Origin: Thermoplasmatota archaeon
Lineage (GTDB): Archaea; Thermoplasmatota; Thermoplasmata; UBA10834
DNA: 64,000 nucleotides
NCBI GenBank assembly: GCA_040751795.1
Contig: JBFMHR010000005.1
Location: 1 to 64,000 of the forward strand
Direction: 5' to 3'
The position numbers and the translations under genes are program-made. The notes below the pieces were generated by a model, which made no database searches, had not been told where the DNA came from, and worked only from the letters and a program-made list of their open reading frames with translations. Below, one piece after another: positions 142 through 64,000 of the stretch (positions within the stretch are counted from its first letter, which is position 1; each line of letters opens with the position of its first letter).

Positions 142-3100
142 TCAGTCGACGACCGTCACGACGACCTCGATCCTGAACATGTCCGAGGACCCGAGGAAGC
201 CGAAGGTCGCCGCGCCGACGTACGTCCCGGCCACGGCCGGCACGCTCCAGTCGATCTGGAACCAGTGCACGCCCGTGCCGACTGGGGTCTCGATGCCGGT
301 GGCCTCGATGCTCGCGCCCTGGATGCCCTGCTTCACGCTCAGCCCGAAGTAGCCAGGGTCGTCCGAGACGGTGTAGCCGAGCACCTTGACCAGGTACTGC
401 CCGTCGGGCAGGTCCCTGAGCGTCAGCGTCTCCGAGGAGCCGCCCATGCCAACGTACCAGTACGGCTCGTCGAGCGTGGCTATCCCGTCCATGTTGACGT
501 CCTGCCACAGCCCGAGGTCGATGTCCGGGCACCCTGAGACCTCCCAGACGGAGACTATCAGGATGCTCGCCGTCTGGACGGTTATGGCCCTGGTGTACGC
601 CGCGTTGGCGAGGTCGGCCTCGAAGTCCGCCGAGAGCGGGTCCTGGTGGATAGCCTCGTGGTCCCACTCCACGGCTATGGTCGGGTCCACGCCTCCGCCC
701 GCTGCCTCGACCTCGCCGTCGACGGTGATGTCGTAGTAGGCGTCGACCGTGCCGGACACCGCGTCGCCGTCGGAGATGTCGACGTCGATCGACACCCCGT
801 CGGGGCTGACCTCGTTAAGGACGACCCACTTGGTCATGCCCTGGAACGACTCCCTGGGCTCGTCGCCTGCCATGAGCGGGCACCTGAGCACCACCGCGAA
901 CGGGGCGGGCGTGCCGAGCGCGTTCTCGTAGGCGCCCAGCGGGGCCGCTATTACCTCCTTGGCCTCGCCCGTGTTGGTGTACAGGCCGAACACTCCCGCG
1001 CCCATGTACCTCTCATCGCTGGACGCCACCGCCTTCTGGTAGAAGCCGGGGCCGTAGGGCGCGGCGAAGACCTGCTGGTCCGCCTCGTCAGGGTCCACGG
1101 CAACAGGCGCGAGCACGTGCACGTTGATGTCCGTGTCCGTCTCGCCCTCGTCCCACTCCACGGATGCCATCAGGTACGCGTCCTCGTCGGGCATCTCCGA
1201 GGGCAGCGACCAGTAGATGCGCCAGTCGCCGACCTCGAACCTCCACCACTTGTCGGACTCGCCCACGACGTCGTTGTTGTAGGGCGTGTCGAAGCACGAC
1301 TCTCCGCCGAACTCGAACTCGTACCCGGTCGCCGGGACGTTGATGAGTAACGGCATGCTCTGCACCCGGGCCCCGTCGCCGATGTAGACGGCCGCGCCGT
1401 ACGAGCCGACGGGCGCGTCCTCGGGCACGCTCACCTTGAGCTCCCACGAGACCTGCCCTCCGGCGGGCACCTCGACAGACAGGGAGTCCTGCCAGTCGTC
1501 CTCGCCGGCGAGGCTGACCTGCGCCCACGGGAACGCCTGCAGCGTGTAGTAGTCCAGCTGCACGTCGACCGGTATGCCCATGGTCGGGGTTATGGCCCGG
1601 ACCCTGACGATCATTCCGTCGGTCGTGCGCGCGAGCGGGTCCTTTATCATTATCTGGTTCACGTTGCACTGGGACCCGTCGACGCTGTACCTCAGGAGCT
1701 CCCAGTTGGAGCCCTTGACGTTCACGACGCCGTTGCCGTTCAGGTCGACCCAGTCGTGCACCTCGAGCCAGTACTCGAAGTCAGCGACGTAGTCCATGTT
1801 CGGGTCGAGCGACCTGATCGGCATGTACATCGTGACCTTCAGGAGGTCCGTCCCGTCCGGGATGTAGTCCGTGATGTCCAGCAGGATGTCGCCGGTCATC
1901 TTCGTCACCGACGGGATCACGTCGGAGCCGGTCCTGAGGAGCAGCTGGCTCGATATGCCGACCGTCGCGGCCTCGCCGCCGAAGTTGGTGGTCGTCACGA
2001 GCTCCACGTCCGACTCCCCTGGCAGTATGAAGTTCGGCGAGAACTCGTAGCTGACGCCGTCGAGGCCGCCCGGGTAGAGCGCCGCCTTGGCGAACATCTC
2101 GCCGTCGACAAGGGACACGACGCCCTCGGACCCGGCCATCGCGGAGGCGTAGGTGCCGGCGTTGAGCCAGCCCGCGCCCTGCTTGAACGGGTCGTACTTC
2201 ATGTCGTCCGCGGAGGCCATGAGCACCGCCTTGGCGTAGTCCTTGTCCGGGACCACGCCGGTCGCCAGCATGTACGCCTGGTATCCGAGCGCCGCGCCTC
2301 CGGCGGTCGTGGGCGTCGCGTGGCTCGTGCCGCTCCCCACCTGCAGGTGGGCCGCGCCGTTGCCTATGGTGCCGAGCTCGTCGGCGATGTTGAGTGGCAT
2401 CGGCTCCAGCGAGTACATGCCCGAGGCGATTATCTCGGCGTTCAGCTTGCCGTTCCTCCCTGGCCCCGAGTTGGAGAACGGGGCCACGTCGCCCCACTTC
2501 TGTTCGTCGGGTATGGTCTCGTAGCCGAGCCAGTACCTGTACTGCATGGTCGTGCCCGCTCCGACGTGGACCGAGGTCGCGTCGACGATGCTGTGCGCCG
2601 TGCCGTACCCCGGCCCGCCGTTGCCGGTCGACCAGAACCAGAGGGTCGGGCCCTGCATGGATATGGTCGTCGCAATCATGTCGAGCTCGGTGTAGCCCGC
2701 GTCGACCGCCGTGTCGGACCAGCCGTAGCTGTTGGTGACGAGGGTCGCCTCGTCCCCGGTCCCGGCCACGCCGTCGACGCCGAACTGTGCGAACATCCAC
2801 GCGTTCACCGTGCTGCCGGTGAAGGGTATGCAGATGAGCCTCGCGCCGGGGGCCATGCCCGCCAGCTGCCCGCCCATGGTGAAGCCCTGGGCGACGGCCG
2901 AGGACGATGTCATCGTCCCGTGTGTGCCCGCGTATGCGCCCATGAATGCGACCGCGTCGCCAGCGCCGGCGGTCCAGGTGGCCCCGTAGGTCCAGCCGGA
3001 GGCCGGGTAGACGTTCACGCCGTCGGCGATCCAGTACGCCATTCCGCCGGAGTAGTCGGCGAAGCCGTCCCCGGCGTTCCAGGCGCTGGTGTCGGTGAGG

Positions 3101-4113
3101 CCAGTTGATGCGTCGTAGAGGTCGAAGTAGGATATCTCGTCGCCCATGGTGCAGGGCTTGTCGTTGACGAACGAGAAGTCGCGCAGCACGTCGACATAGA
3201 CCATGTCGTACACGCCCGCGGTCGTCGAGTCCACGACCAGGACCGCGGCCGGCCCGCCCCATAGGGCGGCCAGGGTCGGGTCAGGGTGGTACCCGATGTG
3301 GTAGACGCCGCTCGCGCTCTTGACCTTGTTCCCGTCGATGTCGAGCAGGCCCTTGACCTTGTACTTGACGCCGTCGAACAGGATGCTCGTGCCCTTCTTG
3401 GCCGATACCTCGGTCGTCGTGTCGGCCATCCATCCGCCTATCTCGCCCCTGCTCCACTGGTTGGCGGCGTAGTCGTCGTAGGCGATGGGCCAGCCGGCGT
3501 AGGCGCCGGACTCGTACCTGGCCTGCTGCCCCTGCATGTCGGGGTGGGCCATGTCGAAGCCGTCGTCGATGACCGCGAGCAGGACGCCCTCTCCGTCGTA
3601 GCCGTCCTCCCACGCGTCCACCGCGCCGTGGACCACGTCTATGTCGTAGTCCTCCGGCATCGGGGCGACCGTGTCAATCGAAGGGACGTCCTTGACGAGG
3701 TCTGCGTCGGAGTCGTCGACGCTCGGCCTCTCGAAGGCCATTATGCCCGTGACGCCGTCCGCCGCCGCCAGGGCCGATATGGCCCCCGCGTCCAGGGACA
3801 TCAGGCTCACGGTCGGGATCCCGGCGAACTCCTTGCTCGCTATCTCCGGGAGCCCCATCGAGGCGAGCACGGCGTTGGCCGCCGCCCTCTCCTCGGCGAT
3901 CACATACACTTCAAAGGGGCCGTCGGACGCCGACATCAGCTCGGCCAGCGCCGGGTCCAGGCGCGCCCCGCTGCCATTCAGGCCCGCGCCGTCCGCCCCG
4001 CCCGCCGCGTCCACCGCGGCTGTCGGCGCCGAGCCGACGACCGCGAGGGCGGCGACGAACATGATCGAAGCGAAGACGACGCTCAGGCTAGCTCTCTTCA
4101 ACCTAGTGTTCAC
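142..4113 (-). CDS. Secreted subtilase (S8, pyrolysin-like) serine protease, 1323 aa
   Basis: N-terminal signal peptide; catalytic motifs AVIDDGFD, HGTMTSS, WSTGNGG and GSGTSHATP; long insert between Asp and His; C-terminal PPC-like domain; GTG start with upstream GGGGGGAG. Confidence 0.9.
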   Translation of the reverse strand: MNTRLKRASLSVVFASIMFVAALAVVGSAPTAAVDAAGGADGAGLNGSGARLDPALAELMSASDGPFEVYVIAEERAAANAVLASMGLPEIASKEFAGIPTVSLMSLDAGAISALAAADGVTGIMAFERPSVDDSDADLVKDVPSIDTVAPMPEDYDIDVVHGAVDAWEDGYDGEGVLLAVIDDGFDMAHPDMQGQQARYESGAYAGWPIAYDDYAANQWSRGEIGGWMADTTTEVSAKKGTSILFDGVKYKVKGLLDIDGNKVKSASGVYHIGYHPDPTLAALWGGPAAVLVVDSTTAGVYDMVYVDVLRDFSFVNDKPCTMGDEISYFDLYDASTGLTDTSAWNAGDGFADYSGGMAYWIADGVNVYPASGWTYGATWTAGAGDAVAFMGAYAGTHGTMTSSSAVAQGFTMGGQLAGMAPGARLICIPFTGSTVNAWMFAQFGVDGVAGTGDEATLVTNSYGWSDTAVDAGYTELDMIATTISMQGPTLWFWSTGNGGPGYGTAHSIVDATSVHVGAGTTMQYRYWLGYETIPDEQKWGDVAPFSNSGPGRNGKLNAEIIASGMYSLEPMPLNIADELGTIGNGAAHLQVGSGTSHATPTTAGGAALGYQAYMLATGVVPDKDYAKAVLMASADDMKYDPFKQGAGWLNAGTYASAMAGSEGVVSLVDGEMFAKAALYPGGLDGVSYEFSPNFILPGESDVELVTTTNFGGEAATVGISSQLLLRTGSDVIPSVTKMTGDILLDITDYIPDGTDLLKVTMYMPIRSLDPNMDYVADFEYWLEVHDWVDLNGNGVVNVKGSNWELLRYSVDGSQCNVNQIMIKDPLARTTDGMIVRVRAITPTMGIPVDVQLDYYTLQAFPWAQVSLAGEDDWQDSLSVEVPAGGQVSWELKVSVPEDAPVGSYGAAVYIGDGARVQSMPLLINVPATGYEFEFGGESCFDTPYNNDVVGESDKWWRFEVGDWRIYWSLPSEMPDEDAYLMASVEWDEGETDTDINVHVLAPVAVDPDEADQQVFAAPYGPGFYQKAVASSDERYMGAGVFGLYTNTGEAKEVIAAPLGAYENALGTPAPFAVVLRCPLMAGDEPRESFQGMTKWVVLNEVSPDGVSIDVDISDGDAVSGTVDAYYDITVDGEVEAAGGGVDPTIAVEWDHEAIHQDPLSADFEADLANAAYTRAITVQTASILIVSVWEVSGCPDIDLGLWQDVNMDGIATLDEPYWYVGMGGSSETLTLRDLPDGQYLVKVLGYTVSDDPGYFGLSVKQGIQGASIEATGIETPVGTGVHWFQIDWSVPAVAGTYVGAATFGFLGSSDMFRIEVVVTVVD

Positions 4114-4133
4114 AGTCTCTCCCCCCGTTGTCT

Positions 4134-4193
4134 CAGCATATTATTGTACAATTATGCTGCGCACCGGAGAGCGGACTTGCCGCTATTAAGTCC
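4134..4193 (-). promoter_or_regulatory. TATA-like box (TTAATA) followed by an AT-rich palindrome upstream of the S8 protease
   Basis: CAGCATA-TT-ATTGTACAAT-TATGCTG at 4134-4159; minus-strand CTTAATAG near 4183-4190. Confidence 0.5.
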
Positions 4194-4272
4194 TACCGGT
4201 CAGTAGGGCCCGGAGTGGTGCAAGGGACGAAATGAAAACGGGTAAAGGGTTTGCCGGGTTTGCGCGTCTAGC

Positions 4273-7200
4273 CTAGTCCTCCGGGGGCGGGGCGGGCTCG
4301 CTCCCGCCCTTCTTCCTGCTCAGCATGAACCAGACCACGACCAGGAGCACGATCGCCACGAGGAACAGCCCCACGGACATGTACATGAGCAGGTCCGCGA
4401 AGGCGTCCGCGTCGTCCACCCTGGTGTTCACGTCGTCCACGTCCTGCTGGACCTGGTCCTCGAGGGCGTCGATCTGCTCCTGGAGGTCGGCTATCTCCTG
4501 GAGGAGCGACTCGTTGAGGTCCCCGACCTGTCCGTCCAGGTCCGCCTGGAGGGCGTCGAGGTCATCCTGCAACGCATCTATCAGGCTCTGCAGCACCTCG
4601 TCGTCCGTGACGAGGTCGTCTATCTGGTCCTGCAGCCCGTCGACCAGGTCCTGGAGCTCGTCCGGCGTCACGTACACAGGCGGCTCGTAGGTCACCACGA
4701 TGCTCTGGCTCGCCGAGTTGCCTAGCGCGTCCTCCGCGACGACCGTCACTGTGTTGTCGCCCTCCGAGAGGGCGATGACCGCGCTGAAGCCCCCCGCGCC
4801 GTCCGCCGCCGACACGCCGTTGACCCAGACCTCCGCGGCCGGGTCGTCGACTGTGCCGGTGACGGTCACGGAAGCCTCCGTGACGACGTCCTGGTCGTCA
4901 GGCGAGGATATCACGGCGGCCGGCGCGGTCGTGTCGAGCACGACCGACACCTCGGCCGACGCGGTGTTGCCCACCCCGTCGGTCGCCTCGACGAGGAAGG
5001 TGTTGTCCCCCTCGGAGAGGGCGAAGGTGTCGGAGAAGGTCCCGTCCGGGTTCACGGAGACTGGGACGCCGTCTATGAGCAGCGTGGCGTCCTCGTCCGT
5101 CCATCCCGTGATGTCCACGGATGCCGCGGCCGTCGGCGACCCTACGTCCTCGACCCAGAGCCTGCAGTGCGTGTCCGACTCGATCATCTTGACCACCGAG
5201 GCGTGCACGCCGGCGTCGTTGACCGTTTCGATGGTCACTATGTTCAGGCCCTCCTGCAGCGCCAGCGCGCTCTCCTCGTAGTAGCCGTCCGAGTCGGACT
5301 CCACGTAGTACGAGTCCCACTCCGTCGTTATCGACACGTCGGAGTACGGGTCCGTGTAGCCCCTGACCAGCACCTCGGTGAGGTTGACGGTCGAGCTGTC
5401 GGGTATGGCGGTCCCGGTGCCCGGGTCGGCGAACTCCGCCCAGAACTCCTCGAACACGGAGTTCACGGAGAACTCGGCGTACTCGTACACCCAGTTCCAG
5501 TAGATGTCGCGGGCGTAGATCTCGAGGTAGTGTTCGCCCTGCGTGAGCGGGTAGTGCCACGCTATGGTGACGTTGGCGTCGTCGACCGAGGCGTACCACT
5601 GCATCTCCCAGATCCCGTCCAGGTAGACATAGAAGTCCCACGAGGCCCAGCCGGAGTAGAAGTTGGCGTGGTCGTTCACGTAGAACGACACCACCAGGTC
5701 CGTCGTGGGTATCGCGGAGCCGTCCGCCGGGGACAGGTTGTCTATCGAGGGCTCGCCCACGTCCGTGACGACCACCACGAACGGGATGCTGATGGAGTCG
5801 TCCGCCCCCAGGAACCCGATCGTGGCCCAGCCGACGAAGACCCCGACCCTCTCGGGCACGCTGTACGAGATGTTGAACTCGTGCGTGCCTGAGCCTGCCA
5901 GCGTCTCGTAGTCGGTCACCTCGATGTAACCGGGGACGCCCATCAGGACGGTCAGGTAGAAGTACCCTGGGTCGCCCGTGACATCGTACCCCAGCACCTT
6001 GATCAGGTACAGCCCGTCCTCTGGGTCCGGCAGCTCGAGGGTCTCCGACGACCCGTAGGCCCCGACGTACCAGTACGGCTCGGTGAGGTCCGCCACGTAG
6101 TCCATGTCCGCGTCGTACCACAGCGCGAGGTCTATGTCCGGGCAGCCCCAGTCCTCCTCGACGCTCACCATCAGGCTGTGGCTGTCCTCGACCCATATGC
6201 CCAGGGTGTACCACGCGTCGGCGAGGTCCGCCACGAAGTCCCCGGTCAGGGTGTCCTGGTAGATGGCCTGCGACCCGTAGTCGAATAGCTCGTACGGGCC
6301 CTCTCCGCCGCCCTTCACATCGACGGCGTCGGTGACGGTTATGTCGTACCACCCGCCCTCGTAGACGCCCGTGAGCGGGATGGCGCCCGGCTGCGGGGCG
6401 TCGAGCCACACGTCGGTGGGATCGTACCCGTTGAGCTCGATCAGCGTCGTGAACCCGTACAGGGTGTCCTGCGCGGAGTGGCCCGCCATCACCGGGCACC
6501 TGGTGAGGATCGCGAACGGCGCCGGGCCCGTGTTGTCGATGTACGGGCCGAGGTCGGCGGTCAAGACCTCCCTTGCCTCCCCGGTGTTGGTCCCTATCCC
6601 GAACGTGCCGGCGCCCATGTAGTCCTCGTCGCTAGAGGCGATGGGCTCCATGGCCATGTCCGGCGCTAGCGGTTCCCAGAACTGGTCCCAGCCGGACCAG
6701 ACCGAGGCGAGCACGTGCACGTTGACGTCGGTCGGCAGCTCCGTCCACTCGACCGTCGTCACCAGCTGCGCGTTGTACGATATCCAGTCGGAGGGCATGC
6801 TCCAGTACATCCTCCAGTCGCCCACCTCGAACCTCCAGCCCTTGTCAGCGAGGCCGCTGAAGTCGTTGTTGTAGGGCGTGTCGAAGTACGAGGGCCCTCC
6901 GAACTCGAACTCGTAGTCCGCCGCGGGCACGTTGATGACCACCGGGATGCTCTGGACCCTGGAGCCGTAGTCGACGTATATCGCCGCGCCGTAGGTCCCG
7001 ACCGGTGCGTCGAGCGGCACCTCCACCCTGACCACCCAGTCGAACGCGCTCGATATTCCCAGCGACACGTCGAGGCCCGTGGTCCACTCGGTCCCGCCCC
7101 ATGGCATGAAGGTTATCCACGGGAAGGTCTGCAGCTCGTAGTAGTCCATCTGCACCGAGATGTTCAGCCCGGCCGCGCCGTCGTAGGCCCGGACGCGGAC

Positions 7201-58765: not shown

Positions 58766-58963
58766 GTGTGCGAGTCGTCGGTCTACCTCCTCAGGGGCGG
58801 GGAGAAGGTCCTGGTAATGAAGGAGGCCGGGAGGCTGCAGGTCTCCGGCGATGGCATCGTCTGCGTGAGCGCCATGGGCGAGAGGGTCGAGGTCCCGGGC
58901 GCGGAGATCGCAGACGCGAACCTGATCAGGCACGAGATAGTCCTCAGGCCGAGGGGTGAGTGA
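58766..58963 (+). CDS. cooT: CooT-family nickel chaperone
   Basis: N-terminal MCES (Cys2), about 65 aa, C-terminal RHEI; adjacent to cooC. Confidence 0.85.
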   Translation: MCESSVYLLRGGEKVLVMKEAGRLQVSGDGIVCVSAMGERVEVPGAEIADANLIRHEIVLRPRGE

Positions 58964-59771
58964 GGGCCTGTCCCTGAAGGTGGCCGTCGCCGGGAAGGGG
59001 GGCGTGGGAAAGACCACCGTGGCCGGCTCGCTGGCGAGGGTCTGGGCGGCGGAGGGGCGGAGGGTCCTCGCCGTTGACGCGGACCCGGCCGCGCACCTGC
59101 ACTCGGTGCTGGGCATACCCAGGTCCGCGATGCCGAAGCCGATCTCCGAGGAGCTGGACCTCATCGAGGAGAGGACCGGGGCGCGCCCCGGGGCGGCGCT
59201 CGGCCCGTTCTTCAAGCTCAACCCGCGGGTGGACGACATCCCGGACAGGTACTCGGCGACGGGCCCGGACGGGGTCCGCCTCATCGTCCTCGGGACGATA
59301 AGGGCCGCCGGGTCGGGATGCTTCTGCCCCGAGAACGCCCTGCTCAGGGGCCTCCTGGAGCACATCGTGCTGGAGAGGGACGACGCGGTCGTGGTCGACA
59401 TGGAGGCCGGGCTGGAGCAGTTCGGCCGCTCGACCTGCAGGGGCGTGGACCTCCTGCTCATAGTTGTCGAGCCAGGGAGCAGGTCCGTGGACACGGCGGC
59501 CCGGATGGCCGCGCTCGCAAGTGAGATGGGCGTCCCGAGGACCGCCGTCGTGGGGAACAGGGTGGGACCGGGGGAGGAGGCCGCGCTCAGGGGGCTCCTG
59601 GACGCGCGCTCCCTGGAGCTGGCCTTCTCCTTCCCACGCTCGGAGGCCGTGGCGAGGGCGGACCTCGAGTGCCGCTCCCCGTTCGACCCCCCCGAGGGGG
59701 ACGCCTGGGCCGCGGACGTCGGACGCCTATCGAACGTGGTTTCAAGGTTGGCGGGTGAGGGCGGCGGTTGA
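58956..59771 (+). CDS. cooC: CooC/AcsF nickel-insertion ATPase
   Basis: GKGGVGKTT, DADP, GCFCPEN and DMEAGLE. Confidence 0.92.
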   Translation: MSEGLSLKVAVAGKGGVGKTTVAGSLARVWAAEGRRVLAVDADPAAHLHSVLGIPRSAMPKPISEELDLIEERTGARPGAALGPFFKLNPRVDDIPDRYSATGPDGVRLIVLGTIRAAGSGCFCPENALLRGLLEHIVLERDDAVVVDMEAGLEQFGRSTCRGVDLLLIVVEPGSRSVDTAARMAALASEMGVPRTAVVGNRVGPGEEAALRGLLDARSLELAFSFPRSEAVARADLECRSPFDPPEGDAWAADVGRLSNVVSRLAGEGGG

Positions 59772-60096
59772 AGGGACGTCCCCTCGGTCGGCAGGAGCCG
59801 TACACGCCCGGCAAAGAAAACGTATTAGTAGCAACATCTGCATTCGTCGGATGCCGACAGGAAAGCGGCGACAGACAGCGAGCCAGACATGGATGTGCGT
59901 GGGGTGGAAGGAGACAGGACGGGCATTGGGTGCCCCGGCCGGCCCGAATCGGGCGGAAGGGGCGCCACGGGCGACTCGGGGACGGCGTTCCGCGCTCGCG
60001 GACGCCATCGCAAACCGTGCGAATGACACTGAGTTACTGACAGCCTGACGCGTCCTCGCATCCTTAGGACCCCGCGACTGCAGGAGGGAGGTCCCG

Positions 60097-63000
60097 GTGG
60101 GAGCTGAAACGGAGGACAAGGCCGCCAGGCCCGGGGAAGGGGCCAAGGCGGGCGGGAAGTGGGTCTGCGAGTGCTGGGACCAGAGCTGCCAGAGCATGTT
60201 CACGGAGGTGCACGAGGGCGGCATCGCCACCGTCATGGACCGGGCGCCCGACCAGGGGGCCCAGTGCAGGTTCGGCTCCCTCGGCCTCTGCTGCAGGATA
60301 TGCCTCCAGGGGCCATGCAGGATCAACCCCATGGGCAAGGCGCCCACGACGGGCATCTGCGGCGCCCGGGACTACACCATTGTCGCGAGGTACATAGACC
60401 GAATGATAGCCGGCGGGACGGCGTCCCACTCCGCCCACGGCAAGGAGATCGCCCACGTGCTGATGGGCGTGGCCGAGGGCAGGGTCAGGGACTACAGGGT
60501 CACGGACCAGGCGAAGCTCGAGGCGGTCGCGAAGAAGCTCGGGCTCCAGGCGCAGGGCAAGTCCGCCTCGGCCCTCGCCCTCGAGGTCGCGCGCGTCGCC
60601 ATGGAGGACTACTCCAGGTACGAGGAGCACCCCCTCAGGTTCCTCGCCTCCAGCGTCACCAAGGGGAGGATGCGCACATGGGACTTCAACGCCGTCCTCC
60701 CGTCGAACATCGAGACGGCCATCACCAACGTCCTGCACAGGACCGCCATGGGGGTCGACGCGGACCCTGTCCCGATACTCTTCGGCGGCATCGAGTGCGC
60801 CCTCGCCGACTACACGGGCGCGCAGATCTCGTCAGACCTGAGCGACGCCCTCTTCGGCACCCCCAAGCTGGTGCTGAGCGAGGTCAACCTCGCCGTGCTG
60901 GACAAGGGGAGCATCAACGTCGCGGTCCACGGGCACAACCCCCTCCTCAGCGACCTCATGGTCGACGTAGCGCGTGAGATGGCCGACGTCGCGAAGAAGG
61001 CCGGGGCCGAGCGGTTCAACATCGTGGGCGTCTGCTGCACGGGCAACGAGATACTCATGCGCAAGGGCGTCCCCATCGCGTCGAACGTACTGGCCCAGGA
61101 GCTCGTGCTCCTGAGCGGGCTCCTGGACGCGATGGTCCTGGACTACCAGTGCTTCCTGCCGTCCCTCGCGTCGCTGGCGAAGTGCGTCCACACCAGGATG
61201 ATCACCACCGAGGAGGTCGCGAGGCTCGTCGGCGACACGCACATAGAGGTCGTGCCCGAGAGGGCCAAGGAGGCGGCGAGGGAGATCCTCAGCATGGCCG
61301 CCGAGGCGTTCAAGCGCCGCGGGAAGGTCCAGAGGCTCCCGGACATCAGGCCCAGGAGGACCGTCGCGGGCTTCAGCCTCGAGCAGATGAGGCACCTCTT
61401 CGCGGCCAAGAAGCCGGACGACCCGTTCCAGCACCTGGTGGACAACATACAGAGCGGGAACGTGCGCGGCCTCGTCCTCTTCGCGGGGTGCAAGAGCATG
61501 CGCGCCAAGGACAACGAGGACGTGATCACCATCGCCAGGGAGCTCCTGAAGAAGGACGTCCTCGTCCTCACGACCGGGTGCAACGCCATCGAGCTGGCCC
61601 GGGCGGGCTTCATGGACCCCGCGATGGTCAAGGAGCTCGCGGGCGAGGGGCTGCAGTCGTTCCTGAGCGACCTGGCCAAGGCAGCGAGCGTCAAGGACGG
61701 CCTGCCCTGCGTGTGGCACATAGGCTCCTGCGTCGACAACCCGAGGTACGCGAACCTCGCGACCGAGGTGTCCAACAGGCTCGGGGCCGACATAGACAAG
61801 ATCCCCTTCGTCGCGGCCGCGCCCGAGGCGATGCACGAGAAGGCAGTGTCGATAGGCACGTGGGCCGTCGCCATGGGCTTCCCGGTGCATGTCGGCACGA
61901 TCAACTACCTCTACGGCAGCTCCCTGGTCACCGAGGTCCTCGAGAACACCGCCAGGGACGTCTACGGGGGCTACTTCATATTCGAGACCGACCCCCTTGA
62001 GGCCGCGAAGAGGCTCTACTCCGCCATAGAGTACAGGCGGTGGCGGCTCGACCTCACCGACCCGGAGATGGAGCGCGCGTCGCACTACGACGGCCCCCCG
62101 CAGAAGGTGACCAAGGAGAGGCTCTTCAAGATGGCCGTCGAGGGCTCGATCATCGCCACTGGCTACGCCGACGTCCTCCTCAGCCACGCGCTCAGGAGGC
62201 ACGGCCCGGACAAGAAGGTCGAGTTCCCAGAGACCGGGTACCAGCTCCCGAGCCTCTTCGCCTGGCTGGGCAGGGACTGCACCCGCCTCGGGGACCTCCC
62301 CGCGCTCCTGGGCGAGGCCCGCTCCAAGATAGTCGAGGAGCCGACCTTCGAGGCGGCCGTCGCCTCGGGCGAGGCGACCATGATCGCCGCGGAGATAGTC
62401 GAGGCGCTGAAGTACATCGACAACCCGGCGCCGTACGAGGGCACCATGTACTGCGGCTTCGTGCCCGACAGGGTGCTCCGCCAGCTGGGCATAGCCTTCG
62501 TCGACGACACCATCCCGGGTGCGGCCGTGTTCGTCGGCAGGGCGAGCGACACCAAGAAGCTCGCCGCGATGATCCGCGACTGCCAGAACAAGGGCATGCT
62601 CATCATCGCCACATACGACATCATCAAGCAGCTCAAGGACGAGAACGTCGCCATGGGCCTGGACAGGATGCTCTACCCCGTGGGGGAGTTCACCCAGGCC
62701 ATCCACGGCCTGAACTTCGCCATCAGGGCGGCCCTCTCGTTCGGCGGCGTCCAGAAGGGCGACAGGCAGGGGCTCATCAACTACCTCTCGAAGAGGCCCA
62801 AGGTGTTCGTCCTCCAGCTCGGCCCGCTCGACCACATCAAGGTCGCAGCGGAGTTCGCGGTGATGTTCAACGGCTCCCCGACCATAACCGACCAGGACGT
62901 CGAGGCCATCCCCGACAAGTACGTCGTGCAGAAGAACATGGAGGAGATGATCTCCACCGCGATAGAGGTCAGGGGATGCAGGATCAAGCTCGGGGCGGTC

Positions 63001-64000
63001 GACCTGCCCGTCGCGTACGGGCCGGCGTTCGAGGGCGAGACCATCCGCCGGCCGGACATGCACGTCGAGGCGGGCGGCCCGTCGAAGACCATCGCCTTCG
63101 AGCTCCTGAGGATGAGGCCGGCCGAGGAGGTCCAGGACGGCAAGGTCAACTTCATAGGCAAGGACGTGGACGAGCTCCCCGAGGGCTCGTCGACGCACCT
63201 CGGCATCCTGGTGAAGGTGTACGGCAAGAACATGCAGAAGGACTTCGAGTCGGTCCTGGAGCGCAGGATACACCAGTTCGCCAACTTCGCCGAGGGCTTC
63301 TGGCACACAGGCCAGAGGAACCTCCTCTGGGTCCGCCTGAGCAAGAGCTCCGTGAAGGCGGGGCTGAGGCTGAGGCACATAGGCGACATCCTGATCACCA
63401 AGATGAAGCAGGAGTTCGGGGCGATAGTGACCAAGATCGAGGTCACGGTGGTCACGGACGAGGCGGAGCTGAGGAAGCACCTGGACGAGGCGAGGGAGGC
63501 CTACGCCGAGAGGGACGCGAGGATAGCGGACCTCACGGACGAGAAGGTCGACACCTTCTACACCTGCACCCTGTGCCAGACCTTCGCCCCCGGCCACGTG
63601 TGCATAGTGACGCCCGAGCGCCTGGGCCTCTGCGGCGCCATCAACTGGCTCGACGCGAAGGCGTCCTTCCAGATCGCCCCGACGGGCCCGAACAACCCCG
63701 TGCAGAAGAGGGAGACGATCGACGAGGTCAAGGGGCAGTGGGCGGGGGTGAACGAGGCCGTGGCGGCCAAGACCCAGGGGAGGTTGCAGAAGTTCAGCGC
63801 CTACACGATGGTCGAGGACCCGATGACCTCGTGCGGCTGCTTCGAGTGCATCGTTGCCGTGTCGCCTGACCTGCAGGGCGTGGTCGTGGTCAACAGGGAG
63901 TACGCGGGCATGACGCCCCTGGGGATGACCTTCTCGACGCTCGCCGGCTCGGTCGGCGGCGGCATCCAGACGCCCGGGTTCATAGGCGTCGGGAGGAGGT
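60097..64000 (+). CDS. acsA-acsB: Fused CO dehydrogenase (CooS/AcsA)-acetyl-CoA synthase (AcsB), partial, continues past the window end
   Basis: GTG after GGAGGGAGG; no stop read in frame. CODH motifs: CRFGSLGLCCRICLQGPC..GICG, HSAH, HGHN, CCTGN, DYQC, AGC, TGC, GSC and EKA. ACS motifs: FPETGYQLP, GFVPD..LR.LG...VD.TIPG, CTLCQTFAPGHVC..PERLGLCGA and PMTSCGCFE. Confidence 0.93.
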   Translation, partial: MGAETEDKAARPGEGAKAGGKWVCECWDQSCQSMFTEVHEGGIATVMDRAPDQGAQCRFGSLGLCCRICLQGPCRINPMGKAPTTGICGARDYTIVARYIDRMIAGGTASHSAHGKEIAHVLMGVAEGRVRDYRVTDQAKLEAVAKKLGLQAQGKSASALALEVARVAMEDYSRYEEHPLRFLASSVTKGRMRTWDFNAVLPSNIETAITNVLHRTAMGVDADPVPILFGGIECALADYTGAQISSDLSDALFGTPKLVLSEVNLAVLDKGSINVAVHGHNPLLSDLMVDVAREMADVAKKAGAERFNIVGVCCTGNEILMRKGVPIASNVLAQELVLLSGLLDAMVLDYQCFLPSLASLAKCVHTRMITTEEVARLVGDTHIEVVPERAKEAAREILSMAAEAFKRRGKVQRLPDIRPRRTVAGFSLEQMRHLFAAKKPDDPFQHLVDNIQSGNVRGLVLFAGCKSMRAKDNEDVITIARELLKKDVLVLTTGCNAIELARAGFMDPAMVKELAGEGLQSFLSDLAKAASVKDGLPCVWHIGSCVDNPRYANLATEVSNRLGADIDKIPFVAAAPEAMHEKAVSIGTWAVAMGFPVHVGTINYLYGSSLVTEVLENTARDVYGGYFIFETDPLEAAKRLYSAIEYRRWRLDLTDPEMERASHYDGPPQKVTKERLFKMAVEGSIIATGYADVLLSHALRRHGPDKKVEFPETGYQLPSLFAWLGRDCTRLGDLPALLGEARSKIVEEPTFEAAVASGEATMIAAEIVEALKYIDNPAPYEGTMYCGFVPDRVLRQLGIAFVDDTIPGAAVFVGRASDTKKLAAMIRDCQNKGMLIIATYDIIKQLKDENVAMGLDRMLYPVGEFTQAIHGLNFAIRAALSFGGVQKGDRQGLINYLSKRPKVFVLQLGPLDHIKVAAEFAVMFNGSPTITDQDVEAIPDKYVVQKNMEEMISTAIEVRGCRIKLGAVDLPVAYGPAFEGETIRRPDMHVEAGGPSKTIAFELLRMRPAEEVQDGKVNFIGKDVDELPEGSSTHLGILVKVYGKNMQKDFESVLERRIHQFANFAEGFWHTGQRNLLWVRLSKSSVKAGLRLRHIGDILITKMKQEFGAIVTKIEVTVVTDEAELRKHLDEAREAYAERDARIADLTDEKVDTFYTCTLCQTFAPGHVCIVTPERLGLCGAINWLDAKASFQIAPTGPNNPVQKRETIDEVKGQWAGVNEAVAAKTQGRLQKFSAYTMVEDPMTSCGCFECIVAVSPDLQGVVVVNREYAGMTPLGMTFSTLAGSVGGGIQTPGFIGVGRR

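Follow-up and report, generated by a model that had tools for sequence, protein, structure and literature searches.

A gene for a probable single-chain CODH/ACS of the bacterial type in a Thermoplasmatota archaeon

The window analyzed here is a stretch of 64,000 nucleotides from a Thermoplasmatota archaeon and comprises the first 64,000 bases of the 276-kb contig C45 (GenBank JBFMHR010000005.1). At its downstream end lies a gene that, in our judgment, very probably encodes a natural single-chain CO dehydrogenase/acetyl-CoA synthase (CODH/ACS) of the bacterial type, an AcsA-AcsB fusion, in an uncultured, non-methanogenic member of this phylum. Few enzyme complexes are as old or as sensitive to oxygen as CODH/ACS, which has a central place in acetogenesis, in methanogenesis and in debates on the origin of metabolism. 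No description of a fusion of AcsA/CooS with AcsB was found in the literature that we searched, although the tables of earlier surveys may list it. Such proteins are in fact already present in public databases, where they are named as CODH, as ACS, or as both. Naming for a single function by annotation pipelines means that surveys that filter by length can miss one of the two functions. One survey, in the portion of its text consulted, retained COG1614 sequences of 350–762 amino acids for its acsB/cdhA profile (PMC13240472).

The fusion gene and its two catalytic halves

The first-pass annotation of this DNA had read an open frame from a GTG at 60097 through CooS/AcsA into AcsB. Translation of the reading frame bears this out; the open reading frame (ORF; 60097..64000 in the window, forward strand) continues for 1,301 codons without a stop up to the window's end and closes at positions 64237–64239 of the same contig, giving a protein of 1,380 amino acids. 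A Shine-Dalgarno-like box, GGAGGGAGG, can be read in the sequence at 60083..60091 (forward strand), 6 nt before the GTG. The annotation had left the ACS C-terminus and acsC/D/E to be sought by extension of the contig, and past the window we recovered this C-terminus together with acsD, acsC, acsE, cooC and RACo. Four Pfam domains are matched along the protein (Prismane at residues 64–633, CODH_A_N at 695–774, CdhC at 970–1124 and ACS_CODH_B_C from 1136), and homologues of 1,357–1,388 amino acids in a word-indexed protein collection share all four.

The N-terminal half, residues 28–652 (60178..62052, forward strand), is a predicted Ni-CODH of the CooS/AcsA type. It matches TIGR01702 (CooS) over exactly these residues, scoring 644.3 bits where the cut-off is 478 (and 646.7 bits when the whole genome was scanned), and it aligns with residues 8–633 of CODH-II (1su6_A) and residues 32–662 of Moorella AcsA (1mjg_A). 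The C-terminal half, residues 673–1380, aligns with residues 17–728 of the 730 in Carboxydothermus ACS (7zkj_B) and with residues 18–728 of Moorella ACS. Within it, domain A1 is assigned to residues 673–961 (62113..62979, forward strand), based on the CODH_A_N match and on alignment with residues 17–310 of 9fu4_B and, for 7zkj_B and 1oao_C, with the N-terminal third of each chain. Domains A2 and A3 are assigned to residues 967–1380 (62995..64000, forward strand, the window ending at residue 1301), which align with residues 7–419 of 3git_A and with 7zkj_B to residue 728 and which contain the CdhC and ACS_CODH_B_C matches. The full three-domain architecture of AcsB, including the N-terminal A1, is thus present. 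The bacterial AcsB model NF040764 matches residues 682–1300 and exceeds its cut-off of 800 bits, with 839.7, even for the protein as cut short at the window's edge, and the cdhC model TIGR00316 matches residues 969–1299.

The annotation had also stated that all of the ligands of the D-, B-, C- and A-clusters are in place, and the structure-chain alignments agree. Positions in the CODH half were located by counting along the alignment with 1su6_A, using residue numbers of that chain that we take to be C39/47 for the D-cluster, C48/51/56/70 for the B-cluster, H261, C295, C333, C446, C476 and C526 for the C-cluster, and H93 and K563 for the catalytic residues. Each is kept: two cysteines for the D-cluster, four for the B-cluster, a histidine and five cysteines for the C-cluster, and the catalytic histidine and lysine. 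In the ACS half the A-cluster cysteines lie in the motifs CTLC, HVC, LCG and SCGC; alignment with 7zkj_B and 1ru3_A shows that the six cysteines of the pattern C-x2-C-x8-C-x9-C plus C-G-C are all conserved. Both active sites are intact.

Comparison with characterized systems places the protein closest to the bacterial AcsA2AcsB2 complexes of Moorella thermoacetica (1MJG, 1OAO) and Carboxydothermus hydrogenoformans (7ZKJ, 1RU3), which align end-to-end with 806–818 bits for the ACS half and 603–627 bits for the CODH half. The three ACS domains, A1 included, are the same, as are the D-, B-, C- and A-cluster ligands and the accessory set of acsC, acsD, acsE, cooC and RACo. The differences are that the fusion is one polypeptide rather than two, that its host is archaeal, and that a shorter bridge replaces the AcsA tail and the long AcsB head. 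On all counts of sequence the halves are members of the CooS/AcsA and AcsB families, and the single hallmark of the bacterial complex that the protein lacks is a division into separate polypeptides.

The archaeal acetyl-CoA decarbonylase/synthase (ACDS; CdhABCDE) carries out the same overall chemistry with homologous catalytic cores. Unlike ACDS, the fusion has a CooS-type CODH, it is accompanied by a methyl branch of the folate type, and its genome holds no second ACS locus. A further contrast lies in A1, which is present in the ACS half of the fusion and absent from CdhC according to the portion consulted of a recent preprint (bioRxiv 10.64898/2026.07.07.736967). In the bacterial enzymes A1 docks on CODH and, as the same text states, carries the CO tunnel. 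The preprint also reports an archaeal CdhC-type ACS that bears an N-terminal A1-like, prismane-fold module and stands beside an archaeal-type CODH. That protein resembles the fusion in having an extra prismane-fold module on the N-terminus of ACS; in the fusion, however, an entire catalytic CODH has been added to an AcsB that already bears A1. An AcsA-AcsB fusion is not mentioned in the part of the preprint that we consulted.

The junction, the linker and the integrity of the chain

The last conserved element of the CODH half is the motif YRRWRL (residues 646–651), and L676 opens the first helix of ACS (LFKMAVEG...). Between them lies a linker of 24 residues, 652–675 (62050..62121, forward strand), and the stop-free linker quoted in the first-pass annotation is indeed found there. 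The possibility must be weighed that an error of sequencing or assembly has removed a stop codon or frameshift between two adjacent genes, or that the locus is decaying. Such an error is conceivable, because in bacteria acsA and acsB often share a frame and are parted by no more than one to a few codons, so that a single mistake could mimic a fusion. Frame breaks are also found elsewhere in four homologous loci (L034, L038, L042 and L048).

A scan of related loci, with one genome per species and with the state of the junction assigned by a check for stop codons, speaks to this question. Among 79 loci, 47 have one open frame over the junction, and all of these carry archaeal labels; nine of the 47 are short or end at a contig edge. 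In one additional locus (L048) the junction is open and an in-frame stop follows about 170 codons further on. Five archaeal loci (L053–L056 and L059) have two genes in different frames, two (L058 and L072) are too short to classify, and all 24 loci with bacterial labels have a stop between the genes. Within the window's order, 34 of 49 genomes, the source genome included, yielded a match. The linker is crossed without a stop in 32 of the 49 and the split form was found in none. A genome was scored as fused only if a single match crossed the linker with no internal stop, a rule illustrated by G049, in which a span of 1417 amino acids holds a TAA.

Contigs from two independent studies span positions 61400–62800 unbroken and free of gaps, differing by 47 and 48 substitutions, and in neither is there a stop or an indel at 62050–62121, where the annotation had asked whether one might be found. 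Codon position 3 holds 35 of the 40 differences that are listed, including both of those in the linker (29 others are not listed). Protein collections present a similar picture. In the word-indexed collection 155 clusters match the junction region; among the 120 listed, 117 contain Prismane together with at least one ACS domain, and all 11 listed clusters that bear an organism name are archaeal. The ESM Atlas returned a cluster of the fusion's own kind (score 0.98, 67 members) and, apart from this, only clusters of stand-alone CODH.

It is hard to see how an error could have produced the same open junction in 47 loci of many assemblies and again in 39 of the class genomes (see below), with two independent contigs free of gaps, a bias of differences toward codon position 3, a full set of catalytic ligands, and a linker length that is fixed within the larger fused clade. 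An artefact or pseudogene would thus be a most improbable explanation, one already refuted as far as the sequence data go, and the fusion is not an artefact.

The character of the linker can be examined by comparing the two fused clades identified in the trees presented below, clade A, which includes the window, and clade B. Between clades the linker varies from about 18 to 29 residues and its sequence varies as well. Within clade A, where its length is constant, the fractions of variable sites at codon positions 1, 2 and 3 are 0.88, 0.67 and 1.0 (order 3 > 1 > 2), and the flanks are much more constrained. In one clade B locus (L050, fused ORF 630–4883) a 40-residue repeat of pentapeptides rich in T, P and D (PDITT/LDSTT-like) is inserted in the linker. 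Because length and sequence vary and because this locus bears a repeat insert, the linker behaves as a flexible tether and not as a domain. In the bacterial relatives AcsA ends about 18 residues past the equivalent of YRRWRL, and AcsB carries a head of about 20 residues ahead of the corresponding helix.

An open frame may nevertheless yield two polypeptides. A 150-kDa precursor might be cut in the linker, for instance by a C11 peptidase, or ACS might be made additionally from an internal start, with a two-subunit enzyme as the outcome. We regard this as unlikely. The variable, acidic and proline-rich linker is probably exposed, which would suit a protease; a C11 peptidase gene lies within the acs cluster, and by our reading 15 genomes of family f1 have the best orthologue of this peptidase less than 10 kb from the fusion. 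C11 paralogues are plentiful, however, close orthologues also occur where the fusion was not found (G043, G044 and G014), and genus g4 has its best C11 match away from the fusion. In addition, a form with a decayed CODH, described below, has remained in frame, suggesting selection for a single chain. With regard to internal initiation, the ATG at 62068 to which the annotation had drawn attention does exist and encodes Met658, and a AAGGAGAGG stretch lies 10–18 nt before Met679. Among homologues position 658 is variously M, V, L or I, and Met679 is replaced by T in L024 and by K in clade B, so that neither methionine is conserved; across the fused clades there is no conserved internal methionine from which ACS could be separately synthesized. 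Moreover, the AAGGAG stretch encodes a conserved K-E of the ACS head and needs no other explanation.

Besides this alternative, several observations weigh against the interpretation that the gene makes and uses one long chain. Among the 47 loci with an open junction are three (L034, L038 and L042) in which the gene is broken in frame or stops early at some other point. A run guessed to be RNA (X20) covers the flanks and not the junction, and the contigs, being 90–99% alike, come from relatives. The window also contains an internal GTG at residue 671, and the survey of internal starts described above covers methionines only. Finally, the fusion has 15 unaligned residues between its halves, compared with 12 + 17 = 29 residues of free tail in Moorella, which bears on the geometry of bridging. 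A single-chain CODH/ACS remains in our view by far the best reading of the locus.

Distribution and descent of fused, split and remnant forms

To place the fusion among its relatives we considered a sample of 401 genomes of the class, the source genome included, of which 80 gave a match. The fused form is present in 39 of these (32 in family f1, four in f4 and one each in f33, f35 and f26), and the split form in 11, from families f15 and f21. Six genomes of genus g56 in f26 carry a decayed CODH remnant joined to ACS, about 15, mainly in f6 and f30, have ACS only, seven have a weak match to CODH only, and two (G645 and G489) are uncertain. The fusion is the standard form in the window's archaeal family, and it is present in at least two deep archaeal clades. 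The annotation's idea of fused forms as a rarity noted in bacteria is not supported. As noted above, the split form was found in none of the genomes of the window's order.

In Moorella's phylum 401 genomes were sampled and 136 gave matches; among the 150 of 340 matches listed, none crosses the junction free of stops. Five listed matches do cross it, and each of these holds one or two TAA codons. A fused protein would rank at the top of such a list. In a representative library of 1.84 billion proteins, 625 matched the junction segment, and among the 150 listed the linker is crossed only by P0099 (1,375 amino acids), P0123 (1,141), the remnant-type P0126 (991) and the fragments P0203 and P0225. 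At the 50%-identity level the fused form thus seems to constitute one narrow lineage with archaeal labels, and no bacterial fusion is found among the matches listed.

Many Bacillota loci (L061–L084) have acsA and acsB in the same frame, with a single stop or a few codons between them, as at L065:5190–5192. A single point mutation could presumably fuse many of these pairs.

The closest non-fused relatives are the split acsA and acsB genes of archaea (the five loci mentioned above, and families f15 and f21), with 59–61% identity over the junction query (55% for L059). They share with the fusion a short ACS head and membership of the same archaeal clade (support 100 in both trees), and acsD lies downstream in four of the five loci. 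They differ in that two frames overlap by a few bases and in that the CODH tail extends about 19 residues longer, past the motif YWTGET. The first-pass annotation had named split genes in relatives as a point that would tell against a true fusion. Such genes exist, in 5 of 79 loci and 11 of 401 class genomes, and to that extent the concern was justified; they form a separate clade, however, and the fusion is not undermined by them.

Separate trees were constructed for the CODH and ACS halves, each with 60 rows, in a quick IQ-TREE run with support from the Shimodaira-Hasegawa-like approximate likelihood ratio test (SH-aLRT). Rows that were short or without the cut motif were omitted (L023, L035, L036, L038, L042, L074, L075, L079 and L080), and the bacterial rows are those returned by the pattern scan, all labelled Bacillota. 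In both trees an archaeal clade of 41 rows stands apart from the 19 Bacillota rows with support of 100. It consists of fused clade A (26 rows, among them the window), fused clade B (11 rows) and the split clade (4 rows). The labels in clade B are Methanomassiliicoccales, Thermoplasmatota, Halobacteriota, Methanomicrobia, Euryarchaeota and one Bathyarchaeia. In the ACS tree the branching order of clade A, clade B and the split clade is not resolved. On the adverse side, fused clade B and the split clade come together in the tree of the CODH half with support of 89, and the trees do not decide between one fusion, one fusion followed by a later fission, and two parallel fusions. Forcing all of the fused rows together costs 13.75 log-likelihood units (approximately unbiased (AU) test, p = 0.104), and a single origin is accordingly not rejected.

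The manner in which the genes became joined can be approached through the split form. The tail of its CODH (RRWKLGI.D.E.VYWTGET...) is homologous to the linker of clade B, the motif in common being RRW.LGI...E..YW.G.T, and in all fused clades the ACS begins at the equivalent of residue 2 of the split ACS. Based on these two correspondences, the most likely origin would be a small deletion across a stop/start overlap. Adjacent and overlapping bacterial-type acsA and acsB genes in an archaeal lineage may have been fused when a short deletion took away the last part of the CODH tail together with the stop codon and the start codon of ACS.

The phylum labels in the clade of L040–L045, L052 and L057 are inconsistent. 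For example, the ACS half of L041, labelled Candidatus Bathyarchaeia, is nearly identical to those of loci labelled Euryarchaeota, Methanomicrobia and Methanobacteriota, with branch lengths of about 0.01.

Other forms were encountered. The remnant type is represented by L085:2335–5409 (reverse strand; G587 of genus g56), which encodes 1,024 amino acids comprising a decayed CODH remnant, a linker and an intact ACS. It aligns continuously with residues 557–1379 of the fusion at 52% identity, and its first 227 residues are without similarity. The catalytic-lysine motif has been lost, there is no Prismane match in Pfam, and acsD and acsC follow. Frames resembling it are found in G799, G545, G759, G611 and G593. 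A second unusual form, L086:2221–7911 (reverse strand; G803), is a fused CODH-ACS of 1,896 amino acids that contains an intein with a LAGLIDADG domain, as do P0085 and P0088. This intein sits inside the C-x2-C of the A-cluster, with the second cysteine of the motif as the +1 extein residue.

In L087:2282–4417 (reverse strand; G599) and about 15 genomes of f6, f30 and other families, AcsB is accompanied by acsD and acsC with no adjacent CODH. The AcsB proteins of this type have about 710–760 amino acids, with two frames of 969 and 998. A preprint, in the portion consulted, reports that Methanomassiliicoccales hold acsBCD (bioRxiv 10.1101/2020.04.21.054031). These relatives belong to the same class and carry AcsB, AcsD and AcsC like the window's genome, and differ in that a functional CODH is absent from them, whereas it is complete in the fusion. 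As a whole, these forms indicate that the bacterial-type enzyme has had a long history of its own in archaea, one class holding split, fused, intein-invaded and CODH-decayed versions. This diversity bears on the published debate as to whether the archaeal AcsB-type enzymes were transferred or are ancestral.

Host, proposed mode of action and gene neighborhood

The source genome has 2.05 Mb in 53 contigs, with 92.8% completeness and 1.15% contamination. Its small-subunit (SSU) rRNA scores 1505 bits with the archaeal model and 1097.5 bits with the bacterial one. The host is an archaeon, and the claim of a single-polypeptide CODH-ACS in this domain of life stands in this respect. The nearest named homologue of the fusion belongs to a Thermoplasmata metagenome-assembled genome (97% identity over the junction region), and the protein falls in a well-supported clade with loci labelled UBA10834 and RBG_19FT_COMBO_56_21. 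Published genome descriptions, in the portions consulted, place these two names in Candidatus Gimiplasmatales and credit the group with acsA–E and a folate methyl branch (PMC9239135, PMC11264602). A place for the host in Candidatus Gimiplasmatales is thus probable, judged from one protein and the labels of its relatives.

The annotation had contrasted the bacterial-type enzyme with the CdhA/B/C normally used by archaea. A CODH of the CdhA type (TIGR00314) gave no match over the cut-off in this 92.8%-complete genome, the best score being 30.7 bits (CdhB was not searched for), and the fusion protein scores 51.7 bits with this model against a cut-off of 781.3. The genome has one locus with the ACS (CdhC) domain and one CooS locus over the cut-off; the fusion is its sole CODH and its sole ACS at this level. 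No match to McrA was found in the genome. Fhs, FolD and MTHFR are encoded close together on contig C1, and the methyl branch is of the tetrahydrofolate type.

In the bacterial enzyme a CO tunnel is formed by the interface of CODH with A1. By analogy, the CODH half of the fusion would reduce CO2 to CO at the C-cluster, and the tethered ACS half would combine this CO with CoA and with a methyl group from the corrinoid iron-sulfur protein (AcsC/AcsD) to yield acetyl-CoA, AcsE having loaded the methyl group from methyl-tetrahydrofolate. The chain would dimerize through its CODH part, A1 would dock on CODH, and CO would pass internally to the A-cluster. CODH enzymes being dimeric, two copies of the 150-kDa chain probably make up the holoenzyme, as a homodimer that would correspond to the alpha2beta2 complex of bacteria; we infer the tunnel geometry, the dimeric state and the direction of flux from the known enzymes. 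The fixed 1:1 stoichiometry that the annotation proposed follows directly from the fusion. What is fixed is stoichiometry and proximity; a tether that is variable and flexible does not on its own make the hard-wired CO channel that the annotation envisaged.

The overall reaction may also run in reverse. It is possible, although we hold it to be doubtful, that the chain is real and serves mainly in an oxidative direction, cleaving acetyl-CoA or oxidizing CO in preference to autotrophic synthesis. The enzyme is reversible, and published genome descriptions, in the portions consulted, suggest that this lineage is mixotrophic and capable of methylotrophic acetogenesis rather than strictly autotrophic (PMC11264602, PMC9239135), which would favor such a role. 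Sequence fixes no direction, however, and the complete methyl branch, the corrinoid protein, RACo and AcsE fit both.

A bolder proposal may be entertained as a tentative one that we would not favor at present, namely that the single-chain CODH/ACS is a distinct and ancient archaeal form rather than a trivial merger of two genes, an obligate (AcsA-AcsB)2 enzyme in which the coupling of the two sites is changed and the CODH body is a platform for ACS. If this were true, ACS would never dissociate or be shared, and its large domain movements would be coupled differently to the delivery of CO. The role of CODH as a platform would explain why a dead CODH remnant is fused to an intact ACS in methanogenic relatives (L085). 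The lineage would then hold a streamlined module for converting CO2 to acetyl-CoA and, in addition, a new kind of "pseudo-CODH-scaffolded" ACS. Whatever the merit of this proposal, a natural single-chain construct in which one gene sets stoichiometry and assembly is attractive for heterologous expression and for structural work, and it permits a direct test of how the mobility of ACS and the exchange of subunits matter to CO channelling.

Directly upstream of the fusion, at 58956..59771 (forward strand), is a CooC-like P-loop ATPase, a putative accessory protein for Ni insertion, with Pfam matches to CbiA, ArsA_ATPase, ParA and the NifH type; among the 44 fused loci that leave 1.1 kb or more on this side, 30 have a cooC homologue upstream. 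Downstream are acsD (316 amino acids, Pfam CdhD) and acsC (444 amino acids, CdhD and FeS), an arrangement that all but one of the 36 fused loci with 2.3 kb or more of sequence on this side share (35 loci). A second cooC-like gene of the CbiA/ParA type and RACo (634 amino acids) lie further downstream on the other strand, and the cluster also includes an acsE-like gene for a pterin-binding protein (258 amino acids, Pterin_bind).

Within family f1, two near-complete genomes, G022 (98%, one contig) and G020 (96%), gave no match to the fusion, and because of this the CODH/ACS module is regarded as patchy in the family.

The remaining genes of the acs cluster lie past the window. Directly after the acsE-like gene, at contig positions 70105–70722 (L003:10105–10722), is a gene for a DUF3786 protein, and at the end of the cluster, at 70835–72127 (L003:10835–12127), is the gene for the C11 (clostripain-family) peptidase discussed above. 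The C11 family is strongly expanded in these archaea, with 16 matches in the source genome and up to 21 in its relatives.

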